Shown here in pieces: positions 1 through 46,427 of a stretch of DNA of 64,000 bases. The notes under the pieces are model-generated. The model was not told where the DNA came from and ran no database searches. It worked only from the letters and a program-made list of their open reading frames with translations. Source of the DNA: Mytilus galloprovincialis (taxonomy: Eukaryota); NCBI RefSeq assembly GCF_965363235.1, contig NC_134847.1, forward strand, positions 69,910,935 through 69,974,934, read 5' to 3'. A program made the translations under genes and the position numbers. Position 1 is the stretch's first letter, and each line of letters begins with the position of its first letter.

Positions 1-879
1 AAATGCCTGCAGCAATAATAACCTGAATTGAATATATTTGTATACTATGAAAATAAAAACTTCTAAAAGTGGTTCTTACTAATCTTTTCATCTCTATCGG
101 GAATTTTCAAATAGAAAAGAATGGAAAGCCAAGGATTTTTTACTACCTAAAATGGTATGTTCTTTATGACTGTTTAAGGTCAAATTTGCTCGCGGGAGAT
201 GGAATCTTAGTTACTTGATAATTTATGAATTTGTAAACGGAGAATGTAAGTAAAGAATGTTATAAAGCACTTATTACCGAGTTGATTATACTCTCGTGAG
301 TTAAAAGCTTAGCAGCAGTTGTATTTATTTATTCTTACTATTCAACGGGACTTTCAGATGAACTGGTGGTATCATGAGGTACAGATTTGTTTAAATAATG
401 AAAGTCGGAATACCAGTAGAGAACGACCGACATTCAGCAGGAAACTAGAACTCTAAACATGTATTTTGACGGGAGCTAGAAATGAAAATAACATCTTATA
501 AATTATAATCACTTCTAACTCAAATTGATAAATTGTTTTCCAAGATTTCAACATAAAGTAGATTCGGATAGATAAAGGCAACAGTTGTATACCGCTGTTC
601 AAAACTCATAAATCCATGGACAAAAAACAAAATCGGGGTAACAAACTAAAACCGAGGGAAACGCATTAAATATAAGAGGAGAACAACGACACAACACTAA
701 AATGTAACACACACAGAAATAGACCAAGCATCAGACAAAATCCCACGAGAATAACAAATATAACATCAAAATCAAATAAATGAATTTGGGATAGACAAGT
801 ACCGTGACACGTCTTATCGCAATATGAAATTACACTCAAAAATAAGAGAAAACAAACGACTCAACGTTAAAATGTTAGA

Positions 880-1065
880 CCCTGTTCACACTAGCATTTT
901 TTTTTTATCGATCTTATTTGCCGTATTTGGCACAACTTTTTTGAATTTTGGATCCTCAATGCTCTTCAACTTTGTACATGTTTGGCTTTATCAATATTTC
1001 GATTTGAGCGTCACTGATGAGTCTTATGTAGACGAAACGCGCGTCTGGCGTACTAAATTATAATC
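880..1065 (+). repeat. Copy of a dispersed repeat carrying a hammerhead ribozyme motif (retrozyme/SINE-like). A degenerate paralogue lies at 6841-6980.
   Basis: About 120 bp is shared with 6861-6975 (atcctcaatgctcWtcaactt...gagcgtYaCTGATGAg...gaaacg.gcgtctggcg). ORF 824..1063 lies inside it and is not coding. Confidence 0.5.
1008..1053 (+). ncRNA. Type-I hammerhead ribozyme core: CUGAUGA, helix II GUC/GAC, GAAAC, helix III ACGC/GCGU, and a GUA cleavage site after 1052.
   Basis: CTGATGA at 1014-1020. Then gtcttatgtagac (3-bp helix II with a 7-nt loop), cGAAAc, acgc-gcgtctg-gcgt (helix III), then tA|C. The core order and spacing match Schistosoma and retrozyme HHRs as recalled. Helix I pairing with the upstream gatttgag is imperfect. 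Confidence 0.55.
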
Positions 1066-1079
1066 CTGGTACTTTTGAT

Positions 1080-1860
1080 AACTATTGAATCGATCTAAAT
1101 AAAACCAGTTAGCGTTCACATTATCTTTAATCATATCGATCTATATCGGTCTAATATGAACCACTGCGTTCACACTACAATTAAAAACGCAATCGATCTA
1201 ACCTTTTTGCCCGTAAAACTGTAAACACTGTGTATAAATAGAACTGATTTATCAAATTCATGTGCTGATACACTGATACACACACTTGGAAAAAAAAATT
1301 GGATAAAGTTATTGTTTCTCTTGAATCACAATTTAAAATTTTGATACTGGTGTTATTGCAGTTTTCTTTAATTTTGAAAAAAATAACTGTAGCAACGAAG
1401 TTACAACACGACGCCGGAAATACTGCGGTTCCTGCAAAGAAAAAAAATCAACATAAGAAAAGAAGACACAGATTTCGTAAATCTATGCTATGGCGAAGAC
1501 AACATGTTTACAGTTTGTTTTAAAGGTCTTTTAACAGAGAAATATGGGTTAAACACCGAACATCTGAGATAGTTTTGCCGCTATACATGCGCAAACGATA
1601 TTTTCGATTCAATCGTACTAGTTTAAACCGATCTCTGCGTTCACATCTAAAGTAAGATCGGTTTACTTTAGATCGATTCAAACTAAACTACCTCTTTTGG
1701 TGTTTTAGTTTAGACCGATTGAAGATCGATTCAATGCGTTCACATTAGCCCTTAAACCGATCTAAAGTGAACCGGTCTAGTTTAAATCGATAAAAATGTC
1801 CTAGTGTGAACATAACCCGAATAATCCAGTCGTTATATTCCGACTCACTATCGATCGCTA
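1080..1860. repeat. Cluster of short direct and inverted repeats (GCGTTCACA, AACCGATCT, GATCGATTCAA motifs). Hairpin-rich, foldback-like.
   Basis: gcgttcaca occurs five or more times. tgtgaac also appears in inverted orientation. aaaccgatc...gatcggttt and ttagatcgattcaaactaaac / gtttagtttagaccgattgaa are inverted pairs. Confidence 0.4.
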
Positions 1861-2885
1861 CATTAACCAATATGAAAAACTATATCTCAAAAGTAAGATA
1901 GAATTAGGATTGAATTAAGATTATAATAGAACTAAATACTGATATAAACACATAGAGTTAGAGCAAAGACATCATATGCAACCAACAAACAGCTTAACAT
2001 GTGAAATGACAAAAGCGAAAGACGAACTGCAAGTAAAAAAGTAAGATGACATAAATACCAAGGTTCCTAGGAAAATTTCAAAACAGAATTCCAACAAATG
2101 GCAAATAAAAATCTCAAATACATCAAACGATTGGAAAACAACTGTCCTATGCCTGACGTGGTATAGGTATTTCCTAATGGCTAATGTAGAAATGATTGAT
2201 AAAAACTGGTTTCATTTGGTGCACGACCATAAGTGTCATAAACATAGACGCAATGTTTATGTCGTGTACATTTTTTTATGTTGTACAGCTTATTACCTGT
2301 ACAAAAACATTGTAAGAGTAATTACTTGTAGATTTTGTTCATATAAACTACTGTGAGTTCAGTAGAATATTAAAAATTTAGTTTAACTGATGAAAATATT
2401 TCCTCAATTTCTATCTAAACTATCATGGATGGATTTTGAAAACGACCCATTAGTTATTTATTTGAAACAAAATATGGAAAGATGATTTCAATGCATATTA
2501 TGTTTCTCCTTTTATATTCCCTTATTATTAAAATAAAAATCCTCGAAAGAAAAATCAATATGATTTTAGAACTTTATGCTTCAGAAATTTAACATTAAAG
2601 ATCAGAAATTTTGTTCTTCTGGTCCTACATAATATAGGCTATGTTATCATGCGAAAAATTACATGTCAAAAGAAAAATGTTAATTTTACATTGACAGCAG
2701 AGCTGGATAGATCTCTAAAACAAGATACCTCTGTAAAGTCCATGTGAAACATTGTTACATATTTATAGATTGTTTTCAAGTTCTGTCCTCTATTATTAAT
2801 AAAAGTCATTATCGTTTGATTTTAAAGACAACGACTTTGTAAATAAAAATGTTCATTATTCAAAAGCAATAAACAGGTAAATATA

Positions 2886-3340
2886 AAAAAGAAGATGTGG
2901 TATGATTGCCAATGAGACAACTATCCACAAAAGACCAAAATGACACAGACATTAACAATTAACTATAGGTCACCGTACGGCCTTCAACAATGAGCAAAGT
3001 CCATATCGCACAGTCAGCTATAAAAGGCCCCGATAAGACAATGTAAAACAATTCAAACGAGAAAACTAACGGCCTTATTTATGTAAAAACAAATGAACGA
3101 AAAACGAATAAGTAACACATAAACAAACGACAACCACTGAATTACAGGCTTCTGACTTGGGACAGGCACAAACATAAATAATGTGGCGGGGTTAAACATG
3201 TTAGCGGGATCCCAACCCTCCCCTAACCTGGGACAGTGGTATAACAGTACAACATAAGAACGACCTATAAAAATCAGTTGAAAAAGGCTTAACTCATCAG
3301 ATGGACAAAAATACAAGTGGACGTGGCCCGGTACTTATAG
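2886..3340 (+). mobile_element. SINE-like interspersed repeat, full-length copy, with head AAGATGTGGTATGATTGCCAATGAGACAAC.
   Basis: Near-identical over about 450 bp to 49295-49760. Minus-strand ORFs 3053..3316 and 49486..49752 encode the same peptide, which is a repeat artefact. Confidence 0.55.
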
Positions 3341-5162
3341 AATACCTTCTCATAAGTTTTGCACGGGATACATTAACTAAAGATCAAGGACCAGTAAATG
3401 ACCAGTCCATAGATTTTTTTTTTGAATTTACAACTCAATTAGATATTGATAATATACATCAGAAAAAAGTATATGTCACCGACTTCGTTTTCGAGAAAAA
3501 TCAATTTTTAAAATGGTCCAATAGGGTACTAAATAACATTGAATATATAGGGAAAATCAATATTTTTCTTCAACAATTTTCGTTTTCCTGAATAAATCAC
3601 TTGAACCACTCCATAGAAATTTTTTTTAAATAAAATGTTCTTCCTCTTTGTCTAACAAATTAGATGATGTTAAAAAATAATATGGTCACCGACTTCGTTT
3701 TCCCTGTAGAAGCGACGCAAACTCAACATTTTGGTAAAAAAAAATCAAAAATCTTAACGTCGTCATTTTTATTACATAACGTCAAGTTATCATGCTAATA
3801 ATTTCCAACGTTCTTCGTGTTGATTATGCACGATGATTATGTGTTTTGTGTTGATAGATTCTTTTTATCATAAGAGTCTGGAAATCATCATTAGTTTTTA
3901 TTTTGTATTACCAGTATTCTTTAATAAATATTCTTTATATTTTAGCACCCTATTATCCTCTTTCTTTTTAATCTTTTTTGTCTTTTTTTCGGAAATTTTT
4001 GCCCGTTATTCTGTATTCCATAAACCCTTAATCATACCCTCTTTTATGGACACGTATTTAAAGGAAAGAAAATATTATGTTCATTATCAATATGTATATG
4101 TTTAAGACAAATACTTATTTAGACAAAAATACTTTGTAAGTACATACACGTAAAGTTTTGCACGGGATAATTTGATGCTAATATGAATTTGGGGCCACCA
4201 AAATATTTTGAGAAAGTTAGTAAGATAAAGCCATCTTCTGTCATATAGATATTATGAAATGCATGTAAGCAACATACACAAAAATTGTATGAACATCTTC
4301 GATTTGGTTATTTTAAAAAATCACAATACAATATTATACATATCAAGACATCATCGTTAGTATCAAAGAATATACCCAACTGAGGTTAAAATTAAGTTAA
4401 TAAAAACAAAATTTAAAAAAAGTTAAAATGTTCTTAATTTTCAATATCATTTCGCAGTGAATAAATCTGAATATAAAATACACAACATGGTTCTAAAGTT
4501 TTTTTTTAATGATATCATATGTGTACACTCTAAACTTTCGACATGTGATGAACGACTCTGGCAAAAAGTGCCTCATGATAAAGAGTTTTGGCAAAGTTTA
4601 ATGACGACATTCATCGTCATTTATATTAACTATAAATCTATCATTATCAGGAGAGTGGACAAAACCTTGAATATCTTATGTGCTTCATTTTAAAATATAT
4701 ATTTTATATATCATATACATAACACAGTCACTGAAACACATGAGGATTCAATGTAACATAGGCTTTTATCATTCATGTTTTGGATAGAGGATGCTTGCGT
4801 TTTTTCCAAAGAGAAACAATTTTTAATTTAAAAAAAATCTTAACTAACAAACACCAACAGGAAATGTGTTTTGAAACTCAATGTTGTATTTCTCCTCTCA
4901 TCCTTTTATGCTTAAATACAAAATATGCAAACAAATCCTTCTCATAACTGTAGTGCAATGATATTGGTAATTATATAGTAGCAATTCTAATTCCAACGTC
5001 AAATGATTCCCATTGGACGATTCAAACATAACTCATTCATTTGTTTATTCCTAATATTTAAATTCATTAATTATTCATAATTATAATAATACAGGTACGT
5101 GAGTGACAATCTGCAAGAAATCTTGCAAAGACGATACGAATTTTTCGTAGAAATATACACTG

Positions 5163-5489
5163 ATGGCACCTGGTGATAACATGTTTATAGTTAAATATGT
5201 TTTGTTCTTTTTAAATGTGTTCAGTCCGGGTCAAACTGAAACAAACATTTTTCGCATTCACCCTGATCGGCTTGATTCTAAGCTGCAAGGATACATTTAT
5301 TTAACATTTGAGAAAATATCACCGAGGTTATGCTTTAACAAATGTATACGGAGGCCAAATTGCCACTCGTACAACTATAATAAAGCTGTGCTGACATGTG
5401 AACTAAATAACAAGCCAAAATCAGTATCTACTGAGGATTTCTATTTTCAGAAAGGATATGTATATGTTGAAATTGACCAGTACAGAGGG
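5163..5489 (+). CDS. Mucin-like gene exon 1: start codon, signal peptide and a PAN/apple-like 4-Cys module.
   Basis: ATG at 5163, with a second ATG at 5181. Hydrophobic MFIVKYVLFFLNVFS. RLCFNKCIRRPNCHSYNYNKAVLTCELN. Donor GTATGT at 5490, phase 0. Confidence 0.6.
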
Positions 5490-6184
5490 GTATGTAAAAA
5501 TTTCATATGATAAGGAAAATAATATCTTTTTACCTATGTTTTTCGAATTATTGTACTATTCTGAAAGAAAGTTTAGTTTTGAGCATTGCGCGTGATTCGT
5601 TATGACAGGAATATAATTAGAGTCATAATCAGTTCTAAACTAAAGCATGGATATATTTTTTAAAGTCACATGAGACTTTAGATTAAAAAACAACGTTGCA
5701 TATGTTTTATATACTAACATAAGACCAAGTTTTATAAAACAAGTGTACATGGACCTTCTTTTGAAAGAAAATTCTTTCTCCTACCACATTCTTCAGAAAT
5801 GTAATGCGATTGAATTGTTGTCTTCCCGTATAATAATTCGCCTTTAGCTTTTCCATATGCAGTTAGCATATATAGCAACGAGTCAATCTTTAGTAATTCG
5901 GTAACCTCACAGCGCAAGTGAGAGAGAGAGAAACGAGGCGAAAGAAAGGATACCTTAAATAAATGTAGAGGTTAGATCATGTATATTGATTCTAAAAGAA
6001 AAAACACAAATTTTAAGTTACACATATTATAATACAACAGACGCTTTTGACATAGATCGCTTTTTTTAGTATGTTTTCGGTGTTTGAGGTTTTATGTTAA
6101 ATTTTCTTAATTATTTCTACAAGTTTTCACATATTTAATGCATTGCTGCTCTCGTCTTTCCAATTTTATAATAAAAGTAGTTTA

Positions 6185-6722
6185 AGGGGCTCGCGGGTCT
6201 AAATCCATTTTATTTAATTTAATATAGGATTTCTCTATATTTTTTTTATAAATGAATTTTATCTTATACTTAATAGAAAAATAGAAAAAAAAATGGGGTC
6301 ACCGTTCATTTACCCTCACAATCTGCCTTCGAAAGAAGCATACATTTTTGTTAATGTCCTTTTTTCTGTTGAAATAATAGGAGAAATAGCGGTAATATCG
6401 ATATAAAAAAAGAACTAAATTACAGAAATCGCTAAAATTTTACAATTATTTAGTTTATGTACAGCTTATTCGAAAACAACCTTAAAAAATTATAGGTCAC
6501 CGATGAGTAAAAAAAGATATTTCAATTTTAATGTCAAAAAATGGCATTTTTGCACAAAAGGGAGATAATTTAGAGCTTTTTCAATGATATGTACATTTTA
6601 AAAGTCACCTGGGGCCAACACGAATTGATTTTTGAGAACAACTACTTAAGGTAATAAATAAAATTTGTAATGAAAAATTAATGTTTAATTTTTTTCTGAA
6701 CATCTTATACCCGCGAGCCTCC
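6185..6722. mobile_element. MITE of about 540 bp with 17-bp TIRs (TTAAGGGGCTCGCGGGT ... ACCCGCGAGCCTCCTTAA), TTAA-flanked, lying in mucin-gene intron 1.
   Basis: The inverted termini at 6185-6201 and 6706-6722 were read directly. TTAA sits at both ends, which is piggyBac-like target preference. Confidence 0.55.
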
Positions 6723-6840
6723 TTAAGTGTTGATATGATCATCGGTATGGTCATTATTTTAAAATAAATGTTTACAATACTTTGAATTTTTAAAATAAGT
6801 ATGCTTTTCTATCTCTGGAATAGATTACTTTGACTGTATT

Positions 6841-6980
6841 TGGCAACAACACTCTAAGGATTTTTTTTTATCCTCAATGCTCATCAACTTCGTACTTTAT
6901 TTGGCCTTTTTAACTTTTAATAATTCGAGCGTTACTGATGAGCCTTTTTTAGATGAAACGAGCGTCTGGCGCAAATACAA
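6841..6980 (+). repeat. Degenerate paralogue of the hammerhead-bearing repeat. CTGATGA and GAAAC are retained but helices II and III are disrupted.
   Basis: gagcgttaCTGATGAgccttttttagatGAAAcgagcgtctggcgc. Pairing is lost relative to the copy at 1008-1053. Confidence 0.4.
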
Positions 6981-7199
6981 AATGTCAAAGATGAATTGGT
7001 GAATGTTATGTAATTGTAAGATCTCACGGATGAGGATGAGCAAAAACACATTGAAAAGTGGAATAATTATCTATCCAGTTGGTTTTTTTTCAATATTAAA
7101 TATTGGCCTTGTTTGTTCATTGTGAAGATCATTAAAGACACCAGCGGTTACATTGGTATTATATACTTTTATCTCATGATTCCGTCTCAATATTTTCAG

Positions 7200-7293
7200 G
7201 ACTCGCTACTGGATCCATGTCATAGAAAGCCCTGCCAGTCAGCAGAGATTTGTGAAATAAAACTGGATGGAAACACATTTTGTGTAAAAGATA
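7200..7293 (+). CDS. Mucin-like gene exon 2: EGF-like Cys module (DPCHRKPCQSAEICEIKLDGNTFCVKDS).
   Basis: Acceptor tattttcag at 7199 and donor GTAAGT at 7294. Phase-0 entry matches exon 1. Phase-1 exit (a) joins AA of exon 3 to give Lys. Confidence 0.55.
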
Positions 7294-8726
7294 GTAAGTA
7301 CACAATTTAAGATAAAGGTATCTTTGATTATCTGAAACATTTGTAAAATTTCTGTTTTGTGCATGATCAAAAAGATTTTTTGTTGTAATGAATTTAGAAA
7401 AGGGAGGGAAAGGTTAGGTGGAATAATTCTTGCCTTGATTTTTTCATACTTAACAAAAGAGTTAATGTCATTTTTTTTTAAGAAACAATGATTATAAAGG
7501 CAATGATGCTATAGTATAAAAACAATACGTTTATCAAAATAATTAAGCGTCTAATGATGGAACGACTAGTAATTTTAATATTTATTGATAAAGTTTTATC
7601 ATTGTCATTTAATGATTATAACTTTTGACATAGTACTGTCTAACCTACAAATACTATGCCATCGGATATAATAAAAAAATACGAAACAATTCGAAAGTAA
7701 AAACCAACGGCATGATTTATTCAAAAACAACAAATAAAGCACAATGTATGTTTGATAGGAAAAAGCAAAAAAAAATAACGCCGTGTCTTTAAAAACATTA
7801 GGACGAAATTCCAATAACGTTGTTGCCTATAGCACTTCGTAAAAATAGCAGCATGCAACATAAAAATAATATGACAAAAAATTCCGAACTCCAAGGAAAA
7901 TTCAAGTCGGAAAGTCGCTTATCAAATGGCAAAATCAAAAGCTCAAACACATTAAAGGAATAGATAACATCTGTCATATTCTTGACTTGGCACATACATT
8001 TTCTTATGTAGAAAATGGTGGATTGAACATGGTTTTCTAGCTAACTTATCCTCTCTTTTGTATGGCAGTCGCTTAAAATTGCAATATATTGACAACAATG
8101 TGTGAACAAAACAAACAGACTTAAATGATAGAAATGTCAAAAACTGAGTAGTCATTCTTGTGTTAAAATTTAATTACTATAAAAACAAACAACTCTGTCA
8201 ATAAAATGGCCAATAGCACATCACTTCAGCCAAAATGGAAGACAAGAGTACAAAAAATGTTCATAGCACAATACAAAAATGACTGGATATTAGTATATGA
8301 ATACCGAGGCATGTCAAAAGAATTTCAGGGAAAATGGACTTAACAGTATAGGCTAAAGATATTCATATACAAGTAAAAGAACACGTCGCAAAACATTGAA
8401 ATTGAACGTTTAACAGTCGAGTACGATCCAGATTTGGCTGAAAATCAAACAAAAAGTATGATCAATGCCGATTTTTACATCTAGTTTGATTAATCTTGAG
8501 AGGAATAATTATGCAAAGTGTCTTCATGTAAATCAAGAAACATGTTCTCCGAAGTCACGTAAGATAGTTTCGGCCCTATTAAAATATTTTCTCAGCTCTT
8601 ATCTTTTACATGATATAGAATCAGATAACATGCCTATTGCCTGCAGCCCATTTATAAAAGGTTTTACTTAGAGCAACAACCAGTGAGAAAAGTATCATAT
8701 AGTGAAGTGTATTTACTCTTTTTCAG

Positions 8727-11700
8727 AACCTATTACCACTACAACAAAAGACAATACAAAATTTCTCAATACTGGTACTTCAACAACGCAAATGAAAACA
8801 CTAACATCAATTTCTCGAATAGCCACAACAACTGAAGCAGCTAAAACCGTCACGTTTGATACTACTGCTGAGATACCATTAACAACAACCAAAGGTACAA
8901 TTGTCTCTGAGACCCATAGATCAAAATCTTACAAAACAACTCCTACAACAGCAACAACTTTGCTAGAGACAACCGCTTATAAATCATCGGTCTCTCCAAT
9001 TACTCATGACCAACCAATGGGATTTGCAGACACTATAGCTAGCTCTATGGCGCCAACAAAAATATTAACATCCCTCTCTGACATTCAGACGATTGCCTCT
9101 TATACAGATGATACGACTGTGACAGACACATCAATTGATACAGATGCTTTCGCAGCGGCAGAAAACATCGAACTTATTTCTAGATATAGTACTACTGGCA
9201 TTACCACTAAGACTATTGACAAAACCGATGATATTCTATTGACAAACACAGAAGGTACTACTGTATCTGAGACTCATAGACGAACATCTAATGATGCAAA
9301 TCTTCAAGTAGCAACAACATTGCTAGACACAACAGCTGAGCAAGCTTCAGTCTCTCTAATTACTGACATTAGACTGATGGAAACTACAAACACTATAGTA
9401 AGCTCAGTAACCCCAATAAAAACGTCAGCATTCATTTCTGAGAGTCATACGATTGGCTTTTTAACGATTGATGAAGCTCCTGTCACAACTGCCAAAACCA
9501 TTGAACTTACATCTATATATAATACTTCTGGCACTACCGCTGACATTCAATTGACAAACACAGAAGGTACAACTGCCTCTGAGACACAAGGACCAACATT
9601 TGACGAAGCAACTTACACAGCAACATCAACATTGCTAGAGACAACTGCTGCTAAAGCTTCGAGCTCTCCGATTAATTATGATAAACAGAATGAAATGACA
9701 GACACTATAGCTAGATCAGCAACGCAAACGAAAACACCGGTGTTTATTTCTGAGAGTCAAACGATTGGCTTTACAACAGATGGTAGTACTTTGACAGACG
9801 CAATAACTGATAAAGATACTAGTACTGTCACATCCGCAGACACCATAAAACTTACTTCTATATCGACAACTGGTGGCACTACCACTAACACTGTTGGTAC
9901 TTCTGCCCAACAGCCGTTGATAAAAGCCGAAAGTACAACTGTCTTTGAAACTCATGGGTCAACATCTGACGAAGTAACTCGCACATCAGCATCAACGTTA
10001 CATAAAACAACCACTCAAGCTTCGAACTCTCCGATTACTAATGATAACCAGACGAAAACAATAGCAAGCACAACAAATCCTGGGAGTACACCGCCATTCA
10101 TTTCTGACACTCAGACTATAGGTACTAAAACAAATGATACGACTGGTACAGCCGCAATAACTGATGGAGATACTGTTACAGCCGCAGAAACCTTCCAACT
10201 TACCTCTTTATCTTCTAATACTGTCACTTCCACTAAGACTGTTGGTACTACTGCAGACACACCATTGACAAACACAGAAGGTACATTTACTGTCTCTAAG
10301 ACTCATAAATCACCGTCTGACGAAACCACTCAAAGAGCTGCAGCAAACTTGCTAGAGACAACCGCTGATCAATCTTCGGTCTCTCAGATTACTAATAACA
10401 AATTGACAGAAACGACGGAAACCATAGCTAGACCAGAAACGCCAACACAAACGTCTACATCCATATCTGACAGTATGGCGATCGGCTTTACAACAGATGA
10501 TACTACGGCAACAGACACAACCACTAGTGAAACAACTGTCACAGCCGCAAAAACTATCGAACCCACTTCTTCATCAAATATTGTTGGCACTACAACTACC
10601 ACTTTTGGTACTACCGCAGAAAAACGGTTGATAGACACCGACGGTACAACTACTGTTTCCGAGACTCATGAATCACCATTTGACGACACGGCTCACACAG
10701 CAGCAATATCATTAATAGAGACTACCGCTGATCAAGCTTCGAGTTCTCCGATTACTTATGATGAACCGAGGGAAATATCGAACACTATAACTCACTCAGC
10801 AACGCCAACAAAAACAGCAGCAACCATTTCTGAGAGTCAAACAATTGACTTTACAACAGATGGGAGCACTGTGACAGACGCAATACCTGATGAAGATGCT
10901 GTCACAGCCGCAGAAACCATCAAACGTACTTCTATATCGTATAATGTTGGCACTACCACTCACATTGTTGGTATTTCTGCCGAAAAGCCGTTGATAAATA
11001 CCGAAGGGACAACTTTCTTTGAGACTCATGGGTCGAAATTTGACGAAACAACTCGCACCGTAACAACAACCGCTCAGCAAGCTTCGTACTCTCCGCCTAC
11101 TTATACAAAACTGAGGGAGACGACAGAAACAGTGGTTGGCTCAAAAACCCAAACGAAAACACCGGCATTCATTTCTAACACTCAGCCAATTGGCTCTAGA
11201 ACAGATGATACGACTATGACAGACACAACAATTCGTGAAGTTTCTGTAACAGCTGCAAAAACCATCAAACTTTCCTCTATATCAAATAATATTGGTACTA
11301 CCGAAGAAACCCCATTGATAAACACCGAAGGTACAACTACTGTCTCTGAGACTCACGAACTAGCATCCGACGCAACAACTCACACAGCAGCAACAACCTT
11401 GCTAGAGACAACAATCGAACAAGCCCTGGTCTCTCCGACTACCAATAATAAACTGAGGGAAATGACGGAGACTATAGCTAGCACAGCAATGCCAATTAAA
11501 ACTCCAGCATTCATTTCTTCCAGTCTGACGATTGGCACTACGACCGATGAAACGACTTTGACAGCCACAACTATAAGGGAAGCTATTGTCACATCCGCAA
11601 AACCAATCGAACTTACCTCTATATCTTATGCTGTTGACACTACCACCAACACTATAAGTACTCCGTTGACAAACACCAAAGGTACAATTGTCTCTGAGAC

Positions 11701-14443
11701 TCAAGGACCAACATTTGACAAAAACACTCACACAGCAGCAATAACCTTGCTAGAAATAACTTCTGATCAAGTTTCGAATTCTCCGATTACCAATGACAAC
11801 ACGACGAAAACGTTGGATAGTTTAGCGAGCACAGTAAATACAGTGAAAACACCGGCATCCATTTCTGACACTGAGACTATTGGGACTAGCATAAATGATA
11901 CGACTTTGACAGACGCAACAACTGATGAAAATACTGTTACAACTACCAAACATATGTCTCTTAACATTGGCACTTCTACCAAGACTATTAGTACAACCGC
12001 AGAAATACAGTTGACAAACACAGAAAGTACATCTTTTGTCTCTGAGACTCGTGGATCACCACCTGACGAAACCACTCACACAGCAGCCACAAACTTGCTA
12101 GAGACAACCACTGATCAATCTACGGTCTCTTCGATTACTAATTACAAATGGACAAAAACGATGGAACCCTCAGCTAGACCAGAAACGCCAACAAAAACGT
12201 CTACGTCCATATCTGACTCTCAAACGATCGGCTTTGCAACAGAAGATACTACGGCGACAGACACAACAACTAGTAAAGCTATTGACACAGACCTTAATAC
12301 CATTCAACTTACCTCGATGTCTAATACTGCTGGCATTACCACTAAGATTGTTGGTAGTATTACCGATAAACATTTGACAAACACAGAAGGTACAACTACT
12401 CTTTCTGAGACTCATGAACCAACATCTGACGAAACATTTTTCACAGCAGCAGCAACCCTGCTAAAGACCACAGCTGATCAAACTTCGGTCTCTCCGATTA
12501 CTAATGATAAACCAAGTCAAACGACGGAAATCATATCTAGCTCAATAACGCCTACGTCCATATTTGACACTCGGACGATCGGCTTTACAACAGATGATAC
12601 TCCGATGACAGACACAACCAGTGAAGCTACTGTAACAGCTGCAAAAACCATCAAACTTACCTCGATGTCTAATACTGTTGGCACAACCACAAGGAACATT
12701 GGTACTACTAGTATCACCGATAATTATTTAAAAAACACACAAGGTACAACTTCTGTTTCTGAGATTCATGGACCAATATCTGACGAAACAACTTACACAG
12801 CAGCAATAACCCTGCTAAAGACCACCGCTGATCAAGCTTCGGTATCTCCGATTACTATTAATAAACCGACGGAAACGACGGAAACCATAGCTAGCTCGAA
12901 AACGCCAACAAAAACGTCTATATCCATATCTGGTACTCAAACGATCGGCTTTAAAACAGATGATACTACGATGATAGAAAAAACAAATAGTGACGCTACT
13001 GACAAATCCGCCAAAACCATCCAACTTACATTGATATATAATACTGTTGGCATAATTACAAGGAACATTGGTACTATCACCGATAATTATTTAACAAACA
13101 CACAAGGTACAACTACTGTTTCTGAGATTCATGGACCAATATCTGACGAAACAACTTACACAGCAGCAACAACCCTGCTAAAGACCACTGCTGATCAAGC
13201 TACGGTCTCTCCGATTACTAATGATAAACCGACGGAAACGACGGAAACCATAGCAAGCTCTAAAACGCCAACAAAATCATCTACATTCATATATGACACT
13301 CAAACGATCGGCTTTACAACATATGATACTACGATGACAGACAAAACAACTAGTGACGCTACTGACACACCCGCAAAAACCATCCAACTTACCTCAATAT
13401 CTAACACTATTGGCCTTACCACTAGGCCTATTGGTTCTATCAGCGAGAAACATGTAACAAACACTAAAGGTACAACTACTGTTTCTGAGATTCATGGACC
13501 AATATCTGACGAAACAACTTACACAGCAGCAACAACCCTGCTAAAGACCACTGCTGATCAAGCTACGGTCTCTCCGATTACTAATGATAAACCGACGGAA
13601 ACGACGGAAACCATAGCAAGCTCTAAAACGCCAACAAAATCATCTACATTCATATATGACACTCAAACGATCGGCTTTACAACATATGATACTACGATGA
13701 CAGACAAAACAACTAGTGACGCTACTGACACACCCGCAAAAACCATCCAACTTACCTCAATATCTAACACTATTGGCCTTACCACTAGGCCTATTGGTTC
13801 TATCAGCGAGAAACATGTAACAAACACTAAAGGTACAACTACTGTTTCTGAGATTCATGGACCAATATCTGACGAAACAACTTACACAGCAGCAACAACC
13901 CTGCTAAAGACCACTGCTGATCAAGCTACGGTCTCTCCGATTACTAATGATAAACCGACGGAAACGACGGAAACCATAGCAAGCTCTAAAACGCCAACAA
14001 AATCATCTACATTCATATATGACACTCAAACGATCGGCTTTACAACATATGATACTACGATGACAGACAAAACAACTAGTGACGCTACTGACACACCCGC
14101 AAAAACCATCCAACTTATCTCAATATCTAACACTATTGGCCTTACCACTAGGCCTATTGGTTCTATCAGCGAGAAACATGTAACAAACACTAAAGATACA
14201 ACTACTGTTTCTGAGGCTCATGGATCAATATCTGACGATTCAACTCACACAGCAGCAACAACTCTGCTAAAGACCACCGCTGATCAAGCTTCGGTCTCTC
14301 CGATTATTAATGATAAACCGACGGAAACGACGAAAACAATATCTAGCTCGGAAACGCCAACAAAAACGTCTACATCCATATCTGACACTCAAACGATCGG
14401 CTTTAAAACAGATGATACAACGATGATAGAAAAAAACAACTAG
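8727..14443 (+). CDS. Mucin-like gene exon 3: about nineteen tandem 121-aa (363-bp) Thr/Ser-rich repeats, ending at TAG 14441-14443.
   Basis: Acceptor ctctttttcag at 8726 and phase-1 entry. Long open frame of 8702..14443. Repeat unit ...TNTEGTTVSETHGPxSDETTYTAATTLLKTTADQASVSPITNDKPTETTETIASS.TPTK.S.SISDTQTIGFTTDDTT.TD.TTS.AT.TAAKTI.LTS.SN.VGTT. The last three units (13141-14229) are identical. Confidence 0.75.
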
Positions 14444-15650
14444 TGACGCTACTGACACATCCGCCAAAACCATCCAACTTACCTCAATATCTAATACTGT
14501 CGGCATAATTACAAGGAACATTGGTACTATCACAGATAATTATTTAACAAACACACAAGGTACAACTACTGTTTCTGAGATTCATGGACCAATATCTGAC
14601 GAAACAACTTACACAGCAGCAACAACCCTGCTAAAGACCACTGCTGATCAAGCTACGGTCTCTCTGATTACTAATGATAAACCGACGGAAACGACGGAAA
14701 CCATAGCAAGCTCGAAAACGCCAACACAAACATCTACATTCATATATGACAATCAAACGATCGGCTTTACAACATATGATACTACGATGACAGACAAAAC
14801 AACTAGTGACCCTACTGACACAACCGCAAAAACCATCTAACTAACCTCGATATCTAATAATGTTGGCTTAACCACTAGGACCATTGGTTCTATCAGCGAG
14901 AAACATGTAACAACCACTAAAGGTACAGCTACTGTTTCTGTGACTCTTGGACCAATATCTGACGAAACAACTTACACAGCAGCAACAACCCTGGTAAAGA
15001 CCACCGCTGGTCAAGCTTCGGTCTCTCCGATTACTAATGATAAACCATCGGAAATCATAGCTAGCTCGGAAACTCAAACAAAACCGTCTACATTCATATA
15101 TGACACTCCAACGATCGGCTTTACAACAGATGATACTACGATGACATACACAACAACTAGCGAAGCTACTGTAAAAGCTGAAAAAACATCCAACTTACCC
15201 CGATATCTAATACTGTTGGCATAACCCCAAGGACCATTGGTACTATCACTGATAATTATTTAACAATAAATCGACGGTAACGACAGAATTAATAGCTAGC
15301 TCGGAAACAGCAACAAAAATGTCTACATTCATAATTGACATTCAGACGATCAGATTTACAACAGATGATACTACGATTACAGACACAACAACTAGCGAAA
15401 CTAGTATAACAGCAGCAAAAACCATCTAACTTATCTCGATATTTAATACTACTGGCATAACCACTAGGACCATTGGTAATATTACCGATACACATTTGAC
15501 AAACACAGAAGGTACAACTACTGTTCCTCAGCCTCACGAACCAACATGTGACGAAACTACTTACACAGCAGCAACAACCCTGCTAAAGACCACCGTTGGT
15601 CATGCTTCGGTCTCTCCGAATACTAATGATAAACCGACCAAAAGACCAAC
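14444..15650 (+). pseudogene. Decayed continuation of the mucin repeat array (about 3.3 more units) with frameshifts and stops.
   Basis: The same 363-bp unit continues. The frame shifts by +1 after an A6 to A7 change at about 14430. An in-repeat TAA (accatcTaactaacc) lies near 14836. ORF 14940..15224 is a residual in-frame piece. Confidence 0.5.
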
Positions 15651-16379: not shown

Positions 16380-18527
16380 ACATGCATATTAAGCTAGGAT
16401 CCCTTTTAACACAGTCTCGTGAGTCTATTGAACTGAAGACAGGGGACTCTCGTTTAAAAGAACTTGATAAAAAGCTAGAAGATGCTGAAAAAAATAAATG
16501 TTTCAATGATCTAGATTTTCCAATAAAGGACTCAGAAATATATTCTGCTATTGGTAGATTAAAAATGGATAAAGCTCCTGGATTAGATCATATTAGCAAC
16601 AACATTTTTAAAAGAGGCCAAATTTTCTTAACAAAATGTTTAATTAAATTGTTTAATACCAGTTTATTATATGGTTTATATCCTTAATCATGGGCGGAAA
16701 GATATATAAAAAAATGCATAAAGGTGGCGATAAAGATGAACAAAGTAACTATAGAGGCCTGACAATCACCAGCTGTGTTGGTAAATTATTCAATTGCATA
16801 TTAAACTCTAGATTGGATAATATTTTAATAAAGCATAATAGATGACTCTCAGATTGGTTTCACAAAAAAGGCTAGAACATCTGACCATATATTTATATTA
16901 AAATGCATTATTGATAAATACTGTTCACATATGATATTAAAGGATGGTAGAGTGTTTGTCTGCTTTGTTGATTTAAGAAAGGCTTTTGACACTGTAATTC
17001 ATACAGGATTAAGACTTAAACTCTTAGAAATAGGGGTTGGTACTAAATTTTATAATGTTATTAAGAATATGTACTCTGTAAGTAAATCTTGTATAAAAAC
17101 AAGTAACACTGCTCGCATTGAAATGTTTGATAGTAAATTGGGAGTTAAGCAAGGCGACAACCTAAGTTCTAACTTGTTCAAAATATTTATTAATGACCTT
17201 CCTTCATTACTGAAACAAACATCAGATCCAATTATACTAAACTCTCGGCATATACATTGTTTGATGTATGCAGATGATATTTTTCTGCTCTCTTCCTCAT
17301 CGCATGGTCTTCAACAAAAACTAGATAATTTAGACATGTTAGATAAGTTTTGCAAACAGTGGTGTCTTACTGTAAATTTATCTGAAACCAAAGTACTTAT
17401 ATTCAATAAGGCAGGCAGACATCTCAAATATAATTTCAAATACAATGGAAAAATTGTTGAATGTGTAACCGAATGTAAATATCTTAGCATTACTTTTTGT
17501 TCATCTGGATCTTTCTCCAGACCTATGCTCAAAATGAACTTTATCAGAAGGGTCTAAAGGCTTATTTTAAACTGTGCAAGGAATTTATTTCTCACTGTCC
17601 TTCACCTTAAATCTCATTACATGTATTCGATCATTCTATTATGCCAATATTATTATATGGTTGTGAAACTTTGGGTTATTTTAATCCCTTTACAACAAGA
17701 TTGAAAAAAAAACCCTGATTTGTCCTTTGATGAAATTTATAAAAGAGTTAAATGTGGAAAAATGCATGTTAAATTATGTAAATTTGTTTTGGTTGTGGGA
17801 AAAAGAGTACACATTTTGCCTCCTTGTCATAACTTGGCAGATTAACCACACATTTTAATATCGTCAGTTCAATGCTTAAATATTGGCACTGTTTAGAAAA
17901 TTTACATAATCAATTTCCAATTCTAAAAGATGTCTATTTAACTTCCATAGAGTTGTACGAAAATAAACATCCTTCTTGGTATGGCTCTGTTTATATACAG
18001 AAAAACAGAATTTTTGATAACCATACTGACTTAACATGCTTAGAGTCAATGAAAACAAATAGTTTTAAGAAGACATGTAAAAAAATATATGAAAATTCAT
18101 TATATTAATCTTTGGCAAAAAAAAAAAAAAAACCATCATTATCAGACGGCAAACTGTGTACATACTTCAAGTTTAAACAAAATTTTGGATTTGAAAATTA
18201 TTTGAATATATTATAAAAGATTTTGGGCAGAGGAGAATTTTCACCAGATTCAGAATATCACCTCATAGACGTCAAAATGTTCAAATAGAGTTGGGAAGAT
18301 GTCAAGGTATTATCAGGCAAAATAGATTGTGTGTTCATTGCACATCTGGCAAGGTAGAAGATGAGATCCATTTTTTACTAACATGTACAAAGTATAAAGT
18401 TGAACGTTATGATCTTATAAATGCTATTTGTCCTAATTTTACCCAATTACAAAATCCTGAAAAATTTATTTGGATGATGAATAATGAAGATCATGAAATA
18501 TATGTAAAATTTGCTGTCGTATAGCCA
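16380..18527 (+). mobile_element. 5'-truncated, frameshifted non-LTR retrotransposon (LINE ORF2: RT domains, thumb, C-terminal CCHC). CR1/L2-like.
   Basis: KAPGLDHISNNIFK. YRGLTITSCVGKLF (other frame). FVDLRKAFDTV. MYADDIFLLS. SIMPILLYGCETLG. C-terminal RLCVHCTSGKVEDEIHFLLTCTKYKVER (18291..18524). No endonuclease region. Confidence 0.7.
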
Positions 18528-19372: not shown

Positions 19373-20110
19373 TTCCAGACCGTATGAGTATTTGGACCGT
19401 ATGCGTATATTTTCAAAATGCGCATACGGTCGGACCGTACGCGTACGGTCTGACTAATATTAAGAAGTTGGTCACGTTTATCAGATACAAATGTATATAA
19501 CAGATCAACATAGCTTACATCTCAAATTAATGTAAAAAGTTCAATAGTAATTGAAATAAAACAAAATAATGTTATAACTATTTTAAAAAATCACGTTTAC
19601 TTAATCTGTTAATCTCCTGTATTTAGCATGTCAGTAATTCATATATTGAAGCCAAGTATGCTAATTAAAATTGAAGTTATCGGAAGTAAACTTAGAGTGG
19701 GAAGACAATCGTTTTAGAATATTAAGGAACTTTACAAAAAAAAAAATGCAAAGCAACGTGCATGAACAAATTATGTTACTGTAAAAAAAAATATGACGTT
19801 CTTTGTGGAAGTCAGTGTCACCTTGAGTACCAAAATAGGAATCACGGATATAAAAATAAACACATATTTAATTTCAATTGTTCGCTTAATCATTTCATCC
19901 ATATACATGTAATAAAATCAATTTGTATAACTAAAAATAATGATTTTGATAAATATTTGTTTAAATTTAACCAATATGATCCCAAAACATCAGCTGGACC
20001 GTACGCGTATACTCATACGGTCCGACCGTACGCGTATGGTCGGACCGTACGAGTATACGTATACGGTCCGGACCGTACGCGTACGGTCCAAATACTCATA
20101 TGGTCTGGAA
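19373..20110. mobile_element. Foldback element of about 740 bp. Arms of about 90-125 bp are built from GGACCGTACGCGTA-type subrepeats; the centre is AT-rich.
   Basis: Left start ttccagaccgtatgagtatttggaccgta and right end tacggtccaaatactcatatggtctggaa are reverse complements. Subrepeats occur at 19396-19450 and 19990-20085. Confidence 0.65.
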
Positions 20111-25157: not shown

Positions 25158-26310
25158 CTTTTTATACGACTGCAAAAAATGTTTGAGGTCGTATATTGGT
25201 ATGACGTTGGCACATTGGTTTTCGCACTATCACTTTAGTTTTTGTAAATAGAAATCTATGAAAATTAAACGCAAGGTTTGTGACCACTAAAGGAAGGTTG
25301 GGATTGATTTTGGGAGTTTTGGTCCCAACAGTTTAGGAATTAGGGGCCAAAAAAGGGCCCAAATAAGCATTTTTCTTGGTTTTCGCACAATAACTTTAGT
25401 AAAAGTAAATAGAAATCTATGAAATTTAAACACAAGGTTTATGAACACAAAAGGAAGGTTGGAATTGATTTGGGAGTTTTGGTCTCAACAGTTTAGGAAT
25501 TAGGGGCCAAAAAGGGGCCCAAATAAGCATTTTTCTTGGTTTTGGCACCATAACTTTAGTATGAGTAAATAGAAATCTATGAAATTTAAACACCATAAAA
25601 GGAAGGTTGAGATTGATTTTGGGAGTTTTAGTCCCCACAGTTTAAGAATTAGGGGCCCAAAGGGTCCAAAATTAAACTTAGTTTGATTTCATCAAAAATG
25701 GAATAATTGGGGTTCTTTGATATGCCGAATCTAACTGTGTATGTAGATTCTTAATTTTTGGTCCTGTTTTCAAATTCGTCTACAATAAGGTCCAAGGGTC
25801 CAAAATTAAACTTAGTTTGATTTTAACAAAAATTGAATTCTTGGGGTTCTTTGATATGCTGAATTTAAACATGTACTTAGATTTTTGATTATGGGCCCAG
25901 TTTTCAAGTTGGTCCAAATCGTGGTCCAAAATTAAACTTTGTTTGATATCAACAAAAATTGAAACCTTGGGGTTCTTTGATATGCTGAATCTAAACATGT
26001 ATTTAGATTTTTGATTATAGGCCCAGTTTTCAAGTTGGTTCAAATCGGGGTCCAAAATTAAACTTTGTTTTATTTCAACAAAAATTGAATATATGGGGTT
26101 CTTTGATATATGCTGAATCTAACCATGCATTTAGAATTATGATATTTGGGCCCGGTTATCAAATTGGTCCACATTGAGGTCTAAAGGGTCCAAAATTGAA
26201 CTTTATTTGATTTCATCAAAAATTGAATTCTTTGGGTTCTTTGATATGCTGAATCTAACCATGTAATTAGATTTTGGATATTGGACCATAATAGGTAAAT
26301 GTCCAATTTA
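25158..26310 (+). mobile_element. Satellite-bearing non-autonomous composite element, copy 1. This is the 5' part; its 3' tail resumes at 33647-33756 after the nested Ngaro.
   Basis: Starts ctttttatacgacYgcaaaaa...ggtcgtata (9-bp hairpin) as in copy 2 at 50643. Contains satellite I (units of about 150-171 bp, 25215-25640) and satellite II (units of about 126-138 bp, 25662-26290). Both satellites carry GGGCCC. Confidence 0.6.
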
Positions 26311-27320
26311 TACAAAATTCTCAGAAATGATCCTGAATATGTTTAATTGTCATTTGTTCCATGTTTGCAATGTGTTCTGATTCTTTGTAAATATTTTTTA
26401 GGGTAAATTTATTTCTGTTTGATGTGATGCTGTTCTAATCTTATTTTAATTGTCTTTTGTTTATACTGTATCTTTTCTGTGGTAATCTGTTATGTAATAG
26501 GGAAATGTGTGTTAACACCTGAGCAAACATCCAACCTCATATCTTCTTGCAAATTCTTTGACCTGACAATTAAACCATCCTGATCTAACTTTCGGTCCTA
26601 TATTTTAATTTTGCTAATAAATGTGTCAGTGAACAAAATCCTCAAAGTCACACATAATGAGTTCATATTAATTTCATAGTAATTTAAATAATTTAATTAC
26701 CCCTGATTTCTTTCAGAACACACTGTTTGAACTCATGATATGTAAAATTAAGGATTTAGTGCTCACATTATTATCAACCTAATTTTTCCTGCTATCACCT
26801 ATCTTGTAAATAAACTCCTGGGAAATACTGTGTAGCAATGCCATTGGTATCCATGTTTGAATTAAACATAAATCATAATTTAATTGCAACTTTTATTTTA
26901 TATATATACATCACGATTATAATTTGGCCCTTGGGGAAACTACTCAGCTAAAAAATTTAATTTTTTGCTCCATGCCTAAACCAAGAGCCTAGCTATGTGC
27001 ATACTGAAAAGTAGCAAAGTATAGACCCCTGGCTTGACATCACACCAATCCAATTGGAACGATGGTTCAAAATAAATGCATGAGGCTATCAGGAAGCCTA
27101 TGAGGCTATCATTCCTAGAGGCTATCATGCCTATGAGGCTATGAGGAAGCCTATAATGAGACAATGAGGAAGCCTGTAAGGAGGCTATGAGGAAGCCTAG
27201 TAGTGTTGATGTTGAATTGGTGTTGGAATGAATTTGTATGAAATTTGACAGTTTATCCCCAGAAATTCTTGGGGGATGAGTGAAATTTTTGAAACAACCA
27301 GTGATAAAATTTCATAAATG
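26311..27320 (-). repeat. Ngaro terminal direct repeat, copy at the element 3' terminus. Contains ATGAGGCTATCA/GAGGAAGCCT subrepeats at 27087-27200.
   Basis: Identical, as read, to 27841-28856. Confidence 0.8.
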
Positions 27321-27840: not shown

Positions 27841-28856
27841 ATACAAAATTCTCAGAAATGATCCTGAATATGTTTAATTGTCATTTGTTCCATGTTTGCA
27901 ATGTGTTCTGATTCTTTGTAAATATTTTTTAGGGTAAATTTATTTCTGTTTGATGTGATGCTGTTCTAATCTTATTTTAATTGTCTTTTGTTTATACTGT
28001 ATCTTTTCTGTGGTAATCTGTTATGTAATAGGGAAATGTGTGTTAACACCTGAGCAAACATCCAACCTCATATCTTCTTGCAAATTCTTTGACCTGACAA
28101 TTAAACCATCCTGATCTAACTTTCGGTCCTATATTTTAATTTTGCTAATAAATGTGTCAGTGAACAAAATCCTCAAAGTCACACATAATGAGTTCATATT
28201 AATTTCATAGTAATTTAAATAATTTAATTACCCCTGATTTCTTTCAGAACACACTGTTTGAACTCATGATATGTAAAATTAAGGATTTAGTGCTCACATT
28301 ATTATCAACCTAATTTTTCCTGCTATCACCTATCTTGTAAATAAACTCCTGGGAAATACTGTGTAGCAATGCCATTGGTATCCATGTTTGAATTAAACAT
28401 AAATCATAATTTAATTGCAACTTTTATTTTATATATATACATCACGATTATAATTTGGCCCTTGGGGAAACTACTCAGCTAAAAAATTTAATTTTTTGCT
28501 CCATGCCTAAACCAAGAGCCTAGCTATGTGCATACTGAAAAGTAGCAAAGTATAGACCCCTGGCTTGACATCACACCAATCCAATTGGAACGATGGTTCA
28601 AAATAAATGCATGAGGCTATCAGGAAGCCTATGAGGCTATCATTCCTAGAGGCTATCATGCCTATGAGGCTATGAGGAAGCCTATAATGAGACAATGAGG
28701 AAGCCTGTAAGGAGGCTATGAGGAAGCCTAGTAGTGTTGATGTTGAATTGGTGTTGGAATGAATTTGTATGAAATTTGACAGTTTATCCCCAGAAATTCT
28801 TGGGGGATGAGTGAAATTTTTGAAACAACCAGTGATAAAATTTCATAAATGGCCAT
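27841..28856 (-). repeat. Ngaro internal copy of the 1.01-kb repeat.
   Basis: Identical to 26311-27320. Duplicate ORFs 26976..27164 and 28507..28695 give the same peptide. Confidence 0.8.
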
Positions 28857-29079: not shown

Positions 29080-30093
29080 TTAAATTCTACCTAACCTACT
29101 TTGAGCTGTTTTAATAGATGCTGGCGTTACCCTAATGTATCTGATGTAACTATCTGAAGTCCAGCGCCCTAATGTTTTTATCAAGTGATCTTCTATTTTT
29201 GCCTTACCAGCACTTGTAGCTGCCCCAATTCTAAAACTATGACCATTATAATGACTTGAGTTGAAACCACATATATCCAGTACTTTTTTGATACAAGTGA
29301 TGAAATATTGTCTCTCCAAAGGTTTCTTATCAATGGTTATGAAAAGTGGATCAGTTTGATTAGTAGGAGAAAATTCTTTCCTTATTTGTATATATTCTAA
29401 CAAAATTGTGTAAGGGCAGATAAGCTGACCTAATTTATGTAGCTGTAGATTTATGCCTTTTCTAAAAGGATCTGTTTTTGATTGTTTTAATTTCAAAACT
29501 ACTAAGTCTGAGTGAAATACAACATCTTCAATACATAAATTTATATGTGGATCAAACTGTGAGGCCTTTGACACTGTAAACTCGCCACATCTCAAAAATC
29601 CATAAAATGCGACAATGCATGCAGTTCTTAACATTAAATCAGTAAACTTGGAACAAAAACCTTTTCTCAAACAATTTACAATTTTTTCCAAAATTTCGAA
29701 AGTTATTGGTAATCTTATGTGATTTTTTGTTTTTTGCAGTCTTTTTACAGAATTTAAAACATAATCAAGTCTGATTAAAGGTGTATTATGAGCAGATTGT
29801 AAGGGATCATTTTGATTACCCTGTACATATTTATACCTAATTCCACATAAATATAATTTAATGGTAGAGTATTGTAAACTCAGAACTTTAAAGCAGTGGG
29901 CTATGAAATAAATTAAAATATCCTCAGAAATAGGAGGTAAATTAGAAAATTGAAAACCATTCAATAACATAAAAGTCTCAAATTTTCTGAACCCAGTATC
30001 ATAAACAGTTCTTGTAGTATTAGCAATAGCACTGTTCCAAAGTTCATTCACTGCTTGATTTAGGACCACATTACATCTGAGCTGCTTGGGCAC
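29080..30093 (-). CDS. Ngaro tyrosine recombinase (phage-integrase-type YR), 337 aa.
   Basis: Box I FLRCGEF. Box II GHSFRIGAATSA. LGRWTSDSYIRYIR carries the Tyr nucleophile, so the R-H-R-Y set is present. Overlaps the RT ORF by 34 nt. Confidence 0.85.
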   Translation of the reverse strand: MPKQLRCNVVLNQAVNELWNSAIANTTRTVYDTGFRKFETFMLLNGFQFSNLPPISEDILIYFIAHCFKVLSLQYSTIKLYLCGIRYKYVQGNQNDPLQSAHNTPLIRLDYVLNSVKRLQKTKNHIRLPITFEILEKIVNCLRKGFCSKFTDLMLRTACIVAFYGFLRCGEFTVSKASQFDPHINLCIEDVVFHSDLVVLKLKQSKTDPFRKGINLQLHKLGQLICPYTILLEYIQIRKEFSPTNQTDPLFITIDKKPLERQYFITCIKKVLDICGFNSSHYNGHSFRIGAATSAGKAKIEDHLIKTLGRWTSDSYIRYIRVTPASIKTAQSRLGRI

Positions 30094-31553: not shown

Positions 31554-31682
31554 AGTATCAAATCCTTTCTCTAAGCCATTGCATAAATAGTTAACAGATT
31601 TTTTGTCAGGATGAGAAATTAATTCTTTTGCAAGTATAATAACATTAATTGGAGTAGTAGCCAGATATGGGAAATCATGTAG

Positions 31683-46200: not shown

Positions 46201-46427
46201 AAAATCAGTAGGTGCACACCAAAAAAGCACAAGAAGCAAACAGTGCATTTATAGTTGTTCTTCTTCTAGGGGTAACAGTTAGGCCTACAATGCTGAGCAA
46301 AGAAACTCCCACCCTTCTGCAATTCCAAGACAACCACCAGCACCGGTCCTAGTAAAGTTTTGTGTACATACCACAGTATATTGTACAATTTAATTATATG
46401 TTACAATTTTTATTTTAATTTATACAG

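Follow-up and report, generated by a model that had tools for sequence, protein, structure and literature searches.

Introduction

The closest described relative of the element reported here is the retrozyme Mg353, a genomic clone from the mussel Mytilus galloprovincialis in which the hammerhead cleavage site is marked, and a consensus of its circular RNA (circRNA) has also been published (Cervera & de la Pena 2020, Nucleic Acids Res, PMC7229834, supplement). The M. galloprovincialis genome contains about 5000 hammerheads, in repeats of 350-390 bp (PMC7229834). Mussel retrozyme circRNAs are abundant in several tissues and have been detected on northern blots, and mussel hammerheads lack most of the nucleotides that make the tertiary contacts between loop 1 and loop 2 (PMC7229834). 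Newt hammerheads need dimers, whereas the mussel retrozyme self-cleaves co-transcriptionally from a construct with a single hammerhead, with a kobs of about 0.1 per min (PMC7229834). In the life cycle described for the family, tandem copies are transcribed, the hammerhead frees each unit, an RtcB-type ligase circularises it, a borrowed reverse transcriptase (RT) makes complementary DNA and this DNA is integrated. Here we describe two solo copies of the Mg353 family, copy 1 and copy 2, in a 64,000-nt stretch of M. galloprovincialis DNA (GCF_965363235.1, contig NC_134847.1, forward strand 69,910,935 to 69,974,934), which is called the window throughout and whose positions are counted from its first letter.

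Copy 1 shares with the Mg353 retrozyme the element itself, the cleavage site GCGCGUC/UGGCG, a low GC content and a Mytilus host. The published active form consists of tandem 350-390 bp units that yield circRNAs, unlike the copies in the window, which are solo and make up 0.48 and about 0.7 of a unit. The hammerheads of Schistosoma Sm-alpha and newt satellite 2, on which the Rfam model Hammerhead_1 (RF00163) is based, are also type I, with CUGAUGA...GAAAC, a helix II base of GUC/GAC, the palindromic helix III ACGCGCGU and a GUC triplet, but their repeat context is unrelated. Penelope-like elements carry type I hammerheads in pseudo-long terminal repeats (pLTRs) near the 3' end of the retroelement, and their insertions are 5'-truncated, sometimes occur as partial tandems and vary in their target duplications. 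Copy 1 differs from them in having no open reading frame (ORF) for an RT or endonuclease and in having a canonical, not a minimal, ribozyme. Plant long terminal repeat (LTR) retrozymes are likewise non-autonomous, and their RNA is excised by hammerheads and then circularised. They have type III hammerheads, LTRs, a primer-binding site, a polypurine tract, 4-bp target duplications and high GC, none of which is found at copy 1.

Results

The segment 917-1079 is 81% identical to the Mg353 clone and to the circRNA consensus, along consensus positions 266-393 and running into 1-37. The homology to the published unit lies on both sides of the hammerhead (81% over 163-170 bp), and homology to tandem units begins 128 nt before the cleavage site and ends 41 nt past it. 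Of a unit, copy 1 keeps only the final ~170 bp, where the hammerhead lies. The host is a Mytilus mussel, as for the published family. An earlier reading of the letters alone, the original prediction, had placed a type I hammerhead at 1000-1065 in a dispersed repeat and suggested either a retrozyme or a short interspersed element (SINE) with a hammerhead. Homology to the non-LTR retrozyme Mg353 and its circRNA consensus bears out the first of these. Its statement that such elements produce circRNAs in metazoans holds at the level of the family, for which circRNAs have been published. The second suggestion found no support. ARAGORN detected no tRNA-like sequence in 1-9000, which is a weak test for a degenerate head, and no A tail follows the ...ACTATT or ...TTTATTT at the end of family copies. 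A SINE of the Sm-alpha type is therefore unsupported as an identity for the repeat. The copies have no LTR, primer-binding site or polypurine tract, their GC contents are 36.5% (copy 1) and 30.4% (copy 2) against 32.8% for the window, and the sole ORF across copy 1 is a 79-aa run-through. We are confident that 917-1086 is a dead-end genomic copy of a Mytilus non-LTR retrozyme of the Mg353 family, non-coding and non-autonomous. By homology, both window copies are members of a known family; they are ordinary, and their kind is already published.

Copy 1 does not have the organisation of the circRNA-producing form. Neither window copy lies in head-to-tail units of 350-390 bp, Tandem Repeats Finder reported no tandem repeat at copy 1 or copy 2, and there is no second hammerhead within one unit length of copy 1. 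Only two fragments of the family are present in the window, 5.9 kb apart. Both are solo truncated derivatives and do not form an active retrozyme locus. A locus such as that of copy 1, with a single ribozyme and only part of a unit, cannot free a monomer or close it into a circle.

The letters at 1000-1065 are cgatttgagcgtcaCTGATGAgtcttatgtagacGAAACgcgcgtctggcgtactaaatt. The Hammerhead_1 model is matched end to end by 1008-1051 on the plus strand with 33.0 bits, which corresponds to an E-value of 9.2e-7 in a search space of 251 nt and of 2.4e-4 when the whole window is searched with all 4227 Rfam families. An Rfam scan of the whole window at the gathering cutoff returned nothing, because this score is 1 bit under the curated cutoff of 34, and the match surfaced in E-value mode. 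The Infernal search that had been proposed as a check thus stays formally below the cutoff, with a window-wide E-value that supports the motif. A strict hammerhead descriptor (core boxes, helix II of at least 3 bp, helix I of at least 5/6 bp) matched once in the window and never in 300 shuffled versions of it. A literature search for the exact hammerhead string gave no paper with it in the main text, and the sequence was found only in the supplementary file of PMC7229834. The hammerhead motif at copy 1 is real.

The predicted catalytic boxes were found as described, with GAAAC at 1034-1038, and helix I is open, which confirms the type I topology. The likeness to trematode hammerheads is also real, since the helix II base GUC/GAC and helix III ACGCGCGU, whose letters are a palindrome, match the Rfam type I consensus. 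The register of the fold had to be changed. The original prediction had a 4-bp helix III (ACGC/GCGU) and a GUA cleavage triplet, which lies 7 nt too far 3'. The Rfam alignment, the mapped cleavage site of Mg353 and pair counts on 20 hammerheads all favour a GUC register, the coordinates of which are given in Table 1. In this register the U-H cleavage dinucleotide is U1044-C1045, in canonical core order, and the published Mg353 site ...GCGCGTC / TGGCG... is homologous to C1045/U1046. Helix II, described before as 3 bp with a 7-nt loop, has 4 bp and a 5-letter loop. Helix I had been called imperfect, and it is paired over 6 + 6 bp, with a duplex energy of -8.2 kcal/mol compared with -1.9 for the best helix I in the earlier register.

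The pair counts were made on an alignment of 12 hammerheads of the mussel family and 8 from other families out of metagenomes. In the GUC register, 94% of the cells were paired and changes on both sides occurred in 6 of 10 pairs; controls in which the 3' partners were slid gave 18-52% paired cells. Between families, both-side compensatory changes were found in 5 of 6 pairs of the lower stem of helix I and in 1 of 2 pairs of helix II. Helix III was fixed by the search pattern, and its pair counts are therefore uninformative. The alternative with helix III at 1037-1040/1048-1051 and a GUA triplet was rejected: it gave 72.5% paired cells and no compensatory change, and was not above shuffles.

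The hammerhead of copy 1 retains every core nucleotide and all three helices. A1026 in loop 2 is the one base that sets it apart from the hammerhead of the Mg353 clone, and this variant recurs in four metagenome copies (L014a, L022p, L027 and L029). From its sequence, it should cut a transcript of the plus strand once, at C1045/U1046. This competence is suggested because the core and helices are intact and the sole difference from Mg353 is a loop-2 base common to other copies. Against the circRNA consensus, copy 1 has 1 difference in 47 nt in the ribozyme versus 31 in 122 elsewhere (Fisher p = 2.9e-4). The ribozyme is therefore the module that subfamilies conserve. Judged by sequence identity, the subfamily of copy 1, with loop 2 UAUGU and a tail ...GATAACTATT, is nearer to the metagenome loci L014, L027 and L029 (92-95%) than to the published consensus.

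Copy 1 lies between two occurrences of ATCGATCT. This 8-nt string is the longest shared by its flanks and was equalled or beaten in 2 of 500 shuffles. The insertion site is a local repeat of about 46-54 bp (ATCGATCT ... GCGTTCACA) at 884-1200. From the ~54-bp repeat, a single ATCGATCT is expected between the two GTTCACA motifs (884 and 1114), and two are found, flanking the insert; the periodicity thus helps to identify the 8-bp target duplication.

Copy 2 is recognised by 78% identity to Mg353 and the consensus over 246 bp (6739-6983), with a weaker extension to 6727; its 3' end is uncertain and could extend to about 7011. The repeat context common to both copies, which had been predicted, was confirmed at 79% identity between 946-1050 and 6864-6971. 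The second, decayed hammerhead was also confirmed, with 15.7 bits and a damaged helix II. In this helix, G6942.U6954 is a wobble and C6943 faces A6953, so that 1 bp is counted from the base, and the helix III palindrome is lost through A6961. Copy 2 is thus a fragment of the same family that is older or has suffered more damage, and its hammerhead has probably lost activity.

Further copies were collected by a scan for the pattern CTGATGA-N(11-15)-GAAACGCGCGTC over metagenome, bacterial and archaeal, and viral collections. In metagenome contigs it gave 51 loci, and 7 of these belong to the mussel family (L003, L011, L014, L022, L024, L027, L029). The remaining metagenome matches were of two kinds: hammerheads of other animal-type families, with clean helices, and chance hits in bacterial DNA of high GC content. 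Bacterial and archaeal genomes gave 36 matches, nearly all without helices I and II and in GC-rich DNA, and none mussel-type; nearly all of them are chance matches to the GC-rich helix III. The viral contigs gave no match. L027 and L029 are 95% and 94% identical to copy 1, and both have the loop-2 variant. L014 is a true head-to-tail array of ~355-bp units that are 89-92% identical to copy 1 (one unit 91.8%).

Nine independent solo copies from two subfamilies have a 3' end 41-63 nt past the cleavage site, followed by unrelated flanks. The stops lie at +42 to +45 in L027, +42 to +44 in L029, +43 to +55 in the plus-strand copy and +47 in the minus-strand copy of L022, +45 to +50 in L011 and about +52 in L003. 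In a solo full-length monomer from M. edulis (L089), the stop is at about +52 to +63, with a small insertion. The L014 array runs on beyond the point at which the solo copies stop. The 5' starts of the solo copies vary from -39 to -330. L011 is flanked by a candidate target duplication, TTATATCAA, which was equalled or beaten in 2 of 500 shuffles.

Some of these loci have features of their own. The M. edulis monomer (L089:20212-20594, GCA_905397895.1) runs from consensus position ~40 through 393 to ~48, with a few bases of terminal redundancy, and its hammerhead core is mutated (ACGAUGA, GAUAAAAC). At L024:400-1440, on the minus strand, a mussel-type hammerhead copy retains only about 45 nt before the cleavage site, and the adjoining ORFs resemble what we take to be Crypton/DUF3504-type domains. 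Other type I families with helix III ACGCGCGU and different, co-varying helices I and II were found at L009, L010, L030, L033, L036, L042, L048, L020, L021 and L051. Two hammerheads lie 980 bp apart in L021 (51 bits), and two copies lie 1354 bp apart in L042. These families probably belong to retrozyme-like repeats from other animals whose DNA is in the environmental assemblies. A contig of a metagenome-assembled genome (L071) carried the sole hammerhead-like match of the bacterial and archaeal scan.

Among the surroundings of the copies, a putative secreted gene lies on the plus strand, with a PAN-domain exon-like ORF at 5163-5510 (Pfam PAN_1) that has a hydrophobic N-terminus and a Cys-rich EGF-like ORF at 7113-7310. 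A mucin-like, Thr/Ser-rich ORF of 1913 aa follows at 8702-14443 (+), and nine tandem repeats of 363 bp are found at 12007-15266. Copy 2 is probably intronic and in sense orientation, because it lies between the PAN-domain ORF and the mucin-like ORF on the same strand. A DIRS-like retrotransposon with three ORFs occupies 29080-33083 (-), with repeated blocks at 27096-27199 and 28627-28730. Its RT product is identical in GCA_900618805.1 (M. galloprovincialis) and in GCA_905397895.1 and GCA_963676685 (M. edulis), and about 7 kb of the element are 99.6% identical in those assemblies, at other genomic positions. The element is therefore young, and the window belongs to the Mytilus edulis species complex. 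An RT fragment at 16931-17557 (+; Pfam RVT_1, E 3e-20) appears to be a dead retroelement, and 34092-34502 (+) holds an ORF with a BRCT-like domain. An exact protein look-up gave no record for the PAN ORF, the 79-aa ORF, the integrase-like ORF, the gag-like ORF or the RT fragment.

Repeats of other kinds are also present in the window. A satellite array at 41935-46202 repeats a 53-bp unit about 80 times, at about 96% identity, and also shows 106-bp and 159-bp higher-order periods. The palindromic element at 59442-59724 matches the plant MIR2646 model on both strands with 46-51 bits against a threshold of 245, and is probably a hairpin like that of a miniature inverted-repeat transposable element and not a microRNA. 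On both strands, a GC-rich palindromic and tandem repeat at 19996-20088 (GGACCGTACG...) matches MIR4380 below threshold. Tandem repeats of 160 bp and 126 bp at 25215-26279 have a related 136-bp block 26 kb away at 51836-52099, and these are probably another dispersed mussel family.

Table 1. Coordinates of the retrozyme copies, the hammerhead of copy 1 and the DIRS-like ORFs in the window
Feature	Position	Strand	Details
Retrozyme copy 1, solo, 5'-truncated	917-1086	+	170 bp, about 0.48 unit; consensus 266-393 plus 1 to about 41
Upstream ATCGATCT, candidate 8-bp target-site duplication	907-914	.	followed by 2-nt filler TA
Downstream ATCGATCT, candidate 8-bp target-site duplication	1089-1096	.	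preceded by 2-nt filler GA
Complete type I hammerhead including upper helix I stem	1001-1059	+	Rfam match 1008-1051; upper helix I from duplexfold
Helix I upper stem	1001-1006 with 1054-1059	+	6 bp; duplexfold
Helix I internal loop	A1007 opposite A1052 and C1053	+	
Helix I lower stem	1008-1013 (GCGUCA) with 1046-1051 (UGGCGU)	+	6 bp; Rfam alignment, pair counts, duplex energy
Catalytic box CUGAUGA (C3-A9)	1014-1020	+	
Helix II	1021-1033	+	G1021-U1024 with A1030-C1033 (GUCU/AGAC, 4 bp); loop 2 UAUGU
Core GAAA	1034-1037	+	
Helix III	A1037-U1044, C1038-G1043	+	tetraloop GCGC 1039-1042
Predicted self-cleavage site GUC/U	between C1045 and U1046	+	Rfam alignment; homologue of the Mg353 marked site
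Retrozyme copy 2, solo	about 6727-6983	+	about 257 bp, about 0.7 unit; consensus 129-393 plus 1-17
Decayed hammerhead of copy 2	6929-6972	+	Hammerhead_1 15.7 bits, E 0.47
DIRS-like element, tyrosine-recombinase-like ORF	29080-30093	-	weak Phage_integrase
DIRS-like element, RT ORF	30060-31553	-	Pfam RVT_1, 497 aa
DIRS-like element, gag-like ORF	31683-33083	-	

Discussion

The common 3' end of the solo copies suggests how they may have been made. Solo copies may arise by target-primed reverse transcription that would start from a fixed position, about 45 nt past the cleavage site, and would often halt before one full round, which would give the 5' truncation. The copies run through the cleavage site without a break, so the template would have been a circle closed by ligation or a multimer left uncleaved. 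The usual 3' terminus, the 5' truncation and the 8-bp target duplication fit target-primed reverse transcription that aborts early. We infer this fixed-start retroposition from nine copies, and the mobilising enzyme is putative. Given the defined 3' terminus and the variable 5' truncation, we propose tentatively, at slightly less than even confidence, that the hammerhead and its ~45-nt tail could be the 3' recognition module of an RT, which would probably be Penelope-like.

Several points weigh against our reading of copy 1 and of its origin. The suspicion that Penelope-like elements supply the mobilising RT comes from the literature only, and no Penelope-like ORF was found in the sequences examined. 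A clear target duplication (8-9 bp) is seen in only 2 of the 6 copies with both ends visible, and ATCGATCT also occurs within the local ~54-bp repeat. Within the mussel family, the helices change in only one partner of a pair (G.U to G-C or A-U), with pairing kept, and double compensatory changes arise only between families that were found by a pattern fixing helix III; the covariation that had been proposed as a check thus holds between families and is one-sided inside the mussel family. The minimum-free-energy fold of 1000-1062 lacks the hammerhead and does not beat shuffled sequences (z = 0.8). Such a failure is usual for three-way-junction ribozymes with short helices, and the fold was weighed neither for nor against the hammerhead. 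The hammerhead also falls 1 bit short of the Rfam gathering cutoff, which is an operational limit and not a biological defining feature. All mussel-family hammerheads tested (L003, L011, L014, L027, L029 and window 1008-1051) score 31.2-33.3 bits, among them a tandem-array unit (33.3 bits) and a copy whose core and loop 2 are those of the active Mg353 ribozyme (31.2 bits). For this reason the sub-cutoff score is uninformative as a refutation.

Other origins of the hammerhead were considered beside that of a dead-end retrozyme copy. It might be a remnant of the pLTR of an autonomous Penelope-like element. According to the literature, Penelope-like pLTRs carry type I hammerheads, their insertions are 5'-truncated with odd termini, and retrozymes have been proposed to derive from pLTRs. 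However, both flanks of the ribozyme are homologous to the non-coding Mg353 unit, and Penelope-like hammerheads are described as atypical minimal variants, whereas that of copy 1 is canonical with three helices. There is also no RT or GIY-YIG ORF nearby: the ORFs in 1-8800 are short except for the PAN-domain exon and the start of the mucin-like ORF, no other long ORF lies within 4 kb of either copy, and the nearest RT fragment is that at 16931-17557. We regard a pLTR origin as very unlikely. That copy 1 is itself an active retrozyme producing circRNA is less likely still. Tandem members of the same family do give abundant circRNAs and the hammerhead is intact, but the 170 bp of a ~355-390 bp unit stand without a tandem repeat or a second hammerhead within unit length, the other window copy is 5.9 kb away and decayed, and one cleavage site cannot free a monomer.

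The orientation of the hammerhead, which is that of the putative plus-strand gene, and its preservation, which against the consensus far exceeds that of the remainder of copy 1, would be expected if it had been co-opted as a cis RNA-processing element of that gene. Near-identical hammerheads with the same loop variant are found at unrelated loci (L027, L029 and L014), and for this reason the preservation reflects the source subfamily and not local selection. Copy 1 also lies ~4 kb upstream of the first recognisable exon, and the copy that is probably intronic, copy 2, is the decayed one. Co-option is therefore highly improbable, even more so than activity of the locus. A chance match to the hammerhead consensus could account for a score under the Rfam cutoff and for the undistinctive minimum-free-energy fold. 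It has practically no weight in view of the window-wide E-value, the absence of descriptor matches in 300 shuffles and a flanking homology of 170 bp with an element whose ribozyme was validated by experiment, and this homology already refutes it. The evidence thus favours the dead-end copy of an Mg353-family retrozyme.

Copy 1 is one among thousands in a family that was described and experimentally tested in 2020, and it is biologically minor. The RF00163 cutoff of 34 misses all mussel-retrozyme hammerheads tested, so that default annotation leaves them unmarked in Mytilus genomes. As far as can be read from its letters, an intact, sense-oriented solo hammerhead could cut any transcript running through it. 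How mussel retrozymes integrate can be approached cheaply through the 3' end that solo copies have in common. If the proposed recognition module is real, it would give sequence-level support from an invertebrate for retrozymes as non-autonomous Penelope-like elements, and recognition of the hammerhead and its tail by the RT would explain why solitary hammerheads are so common.

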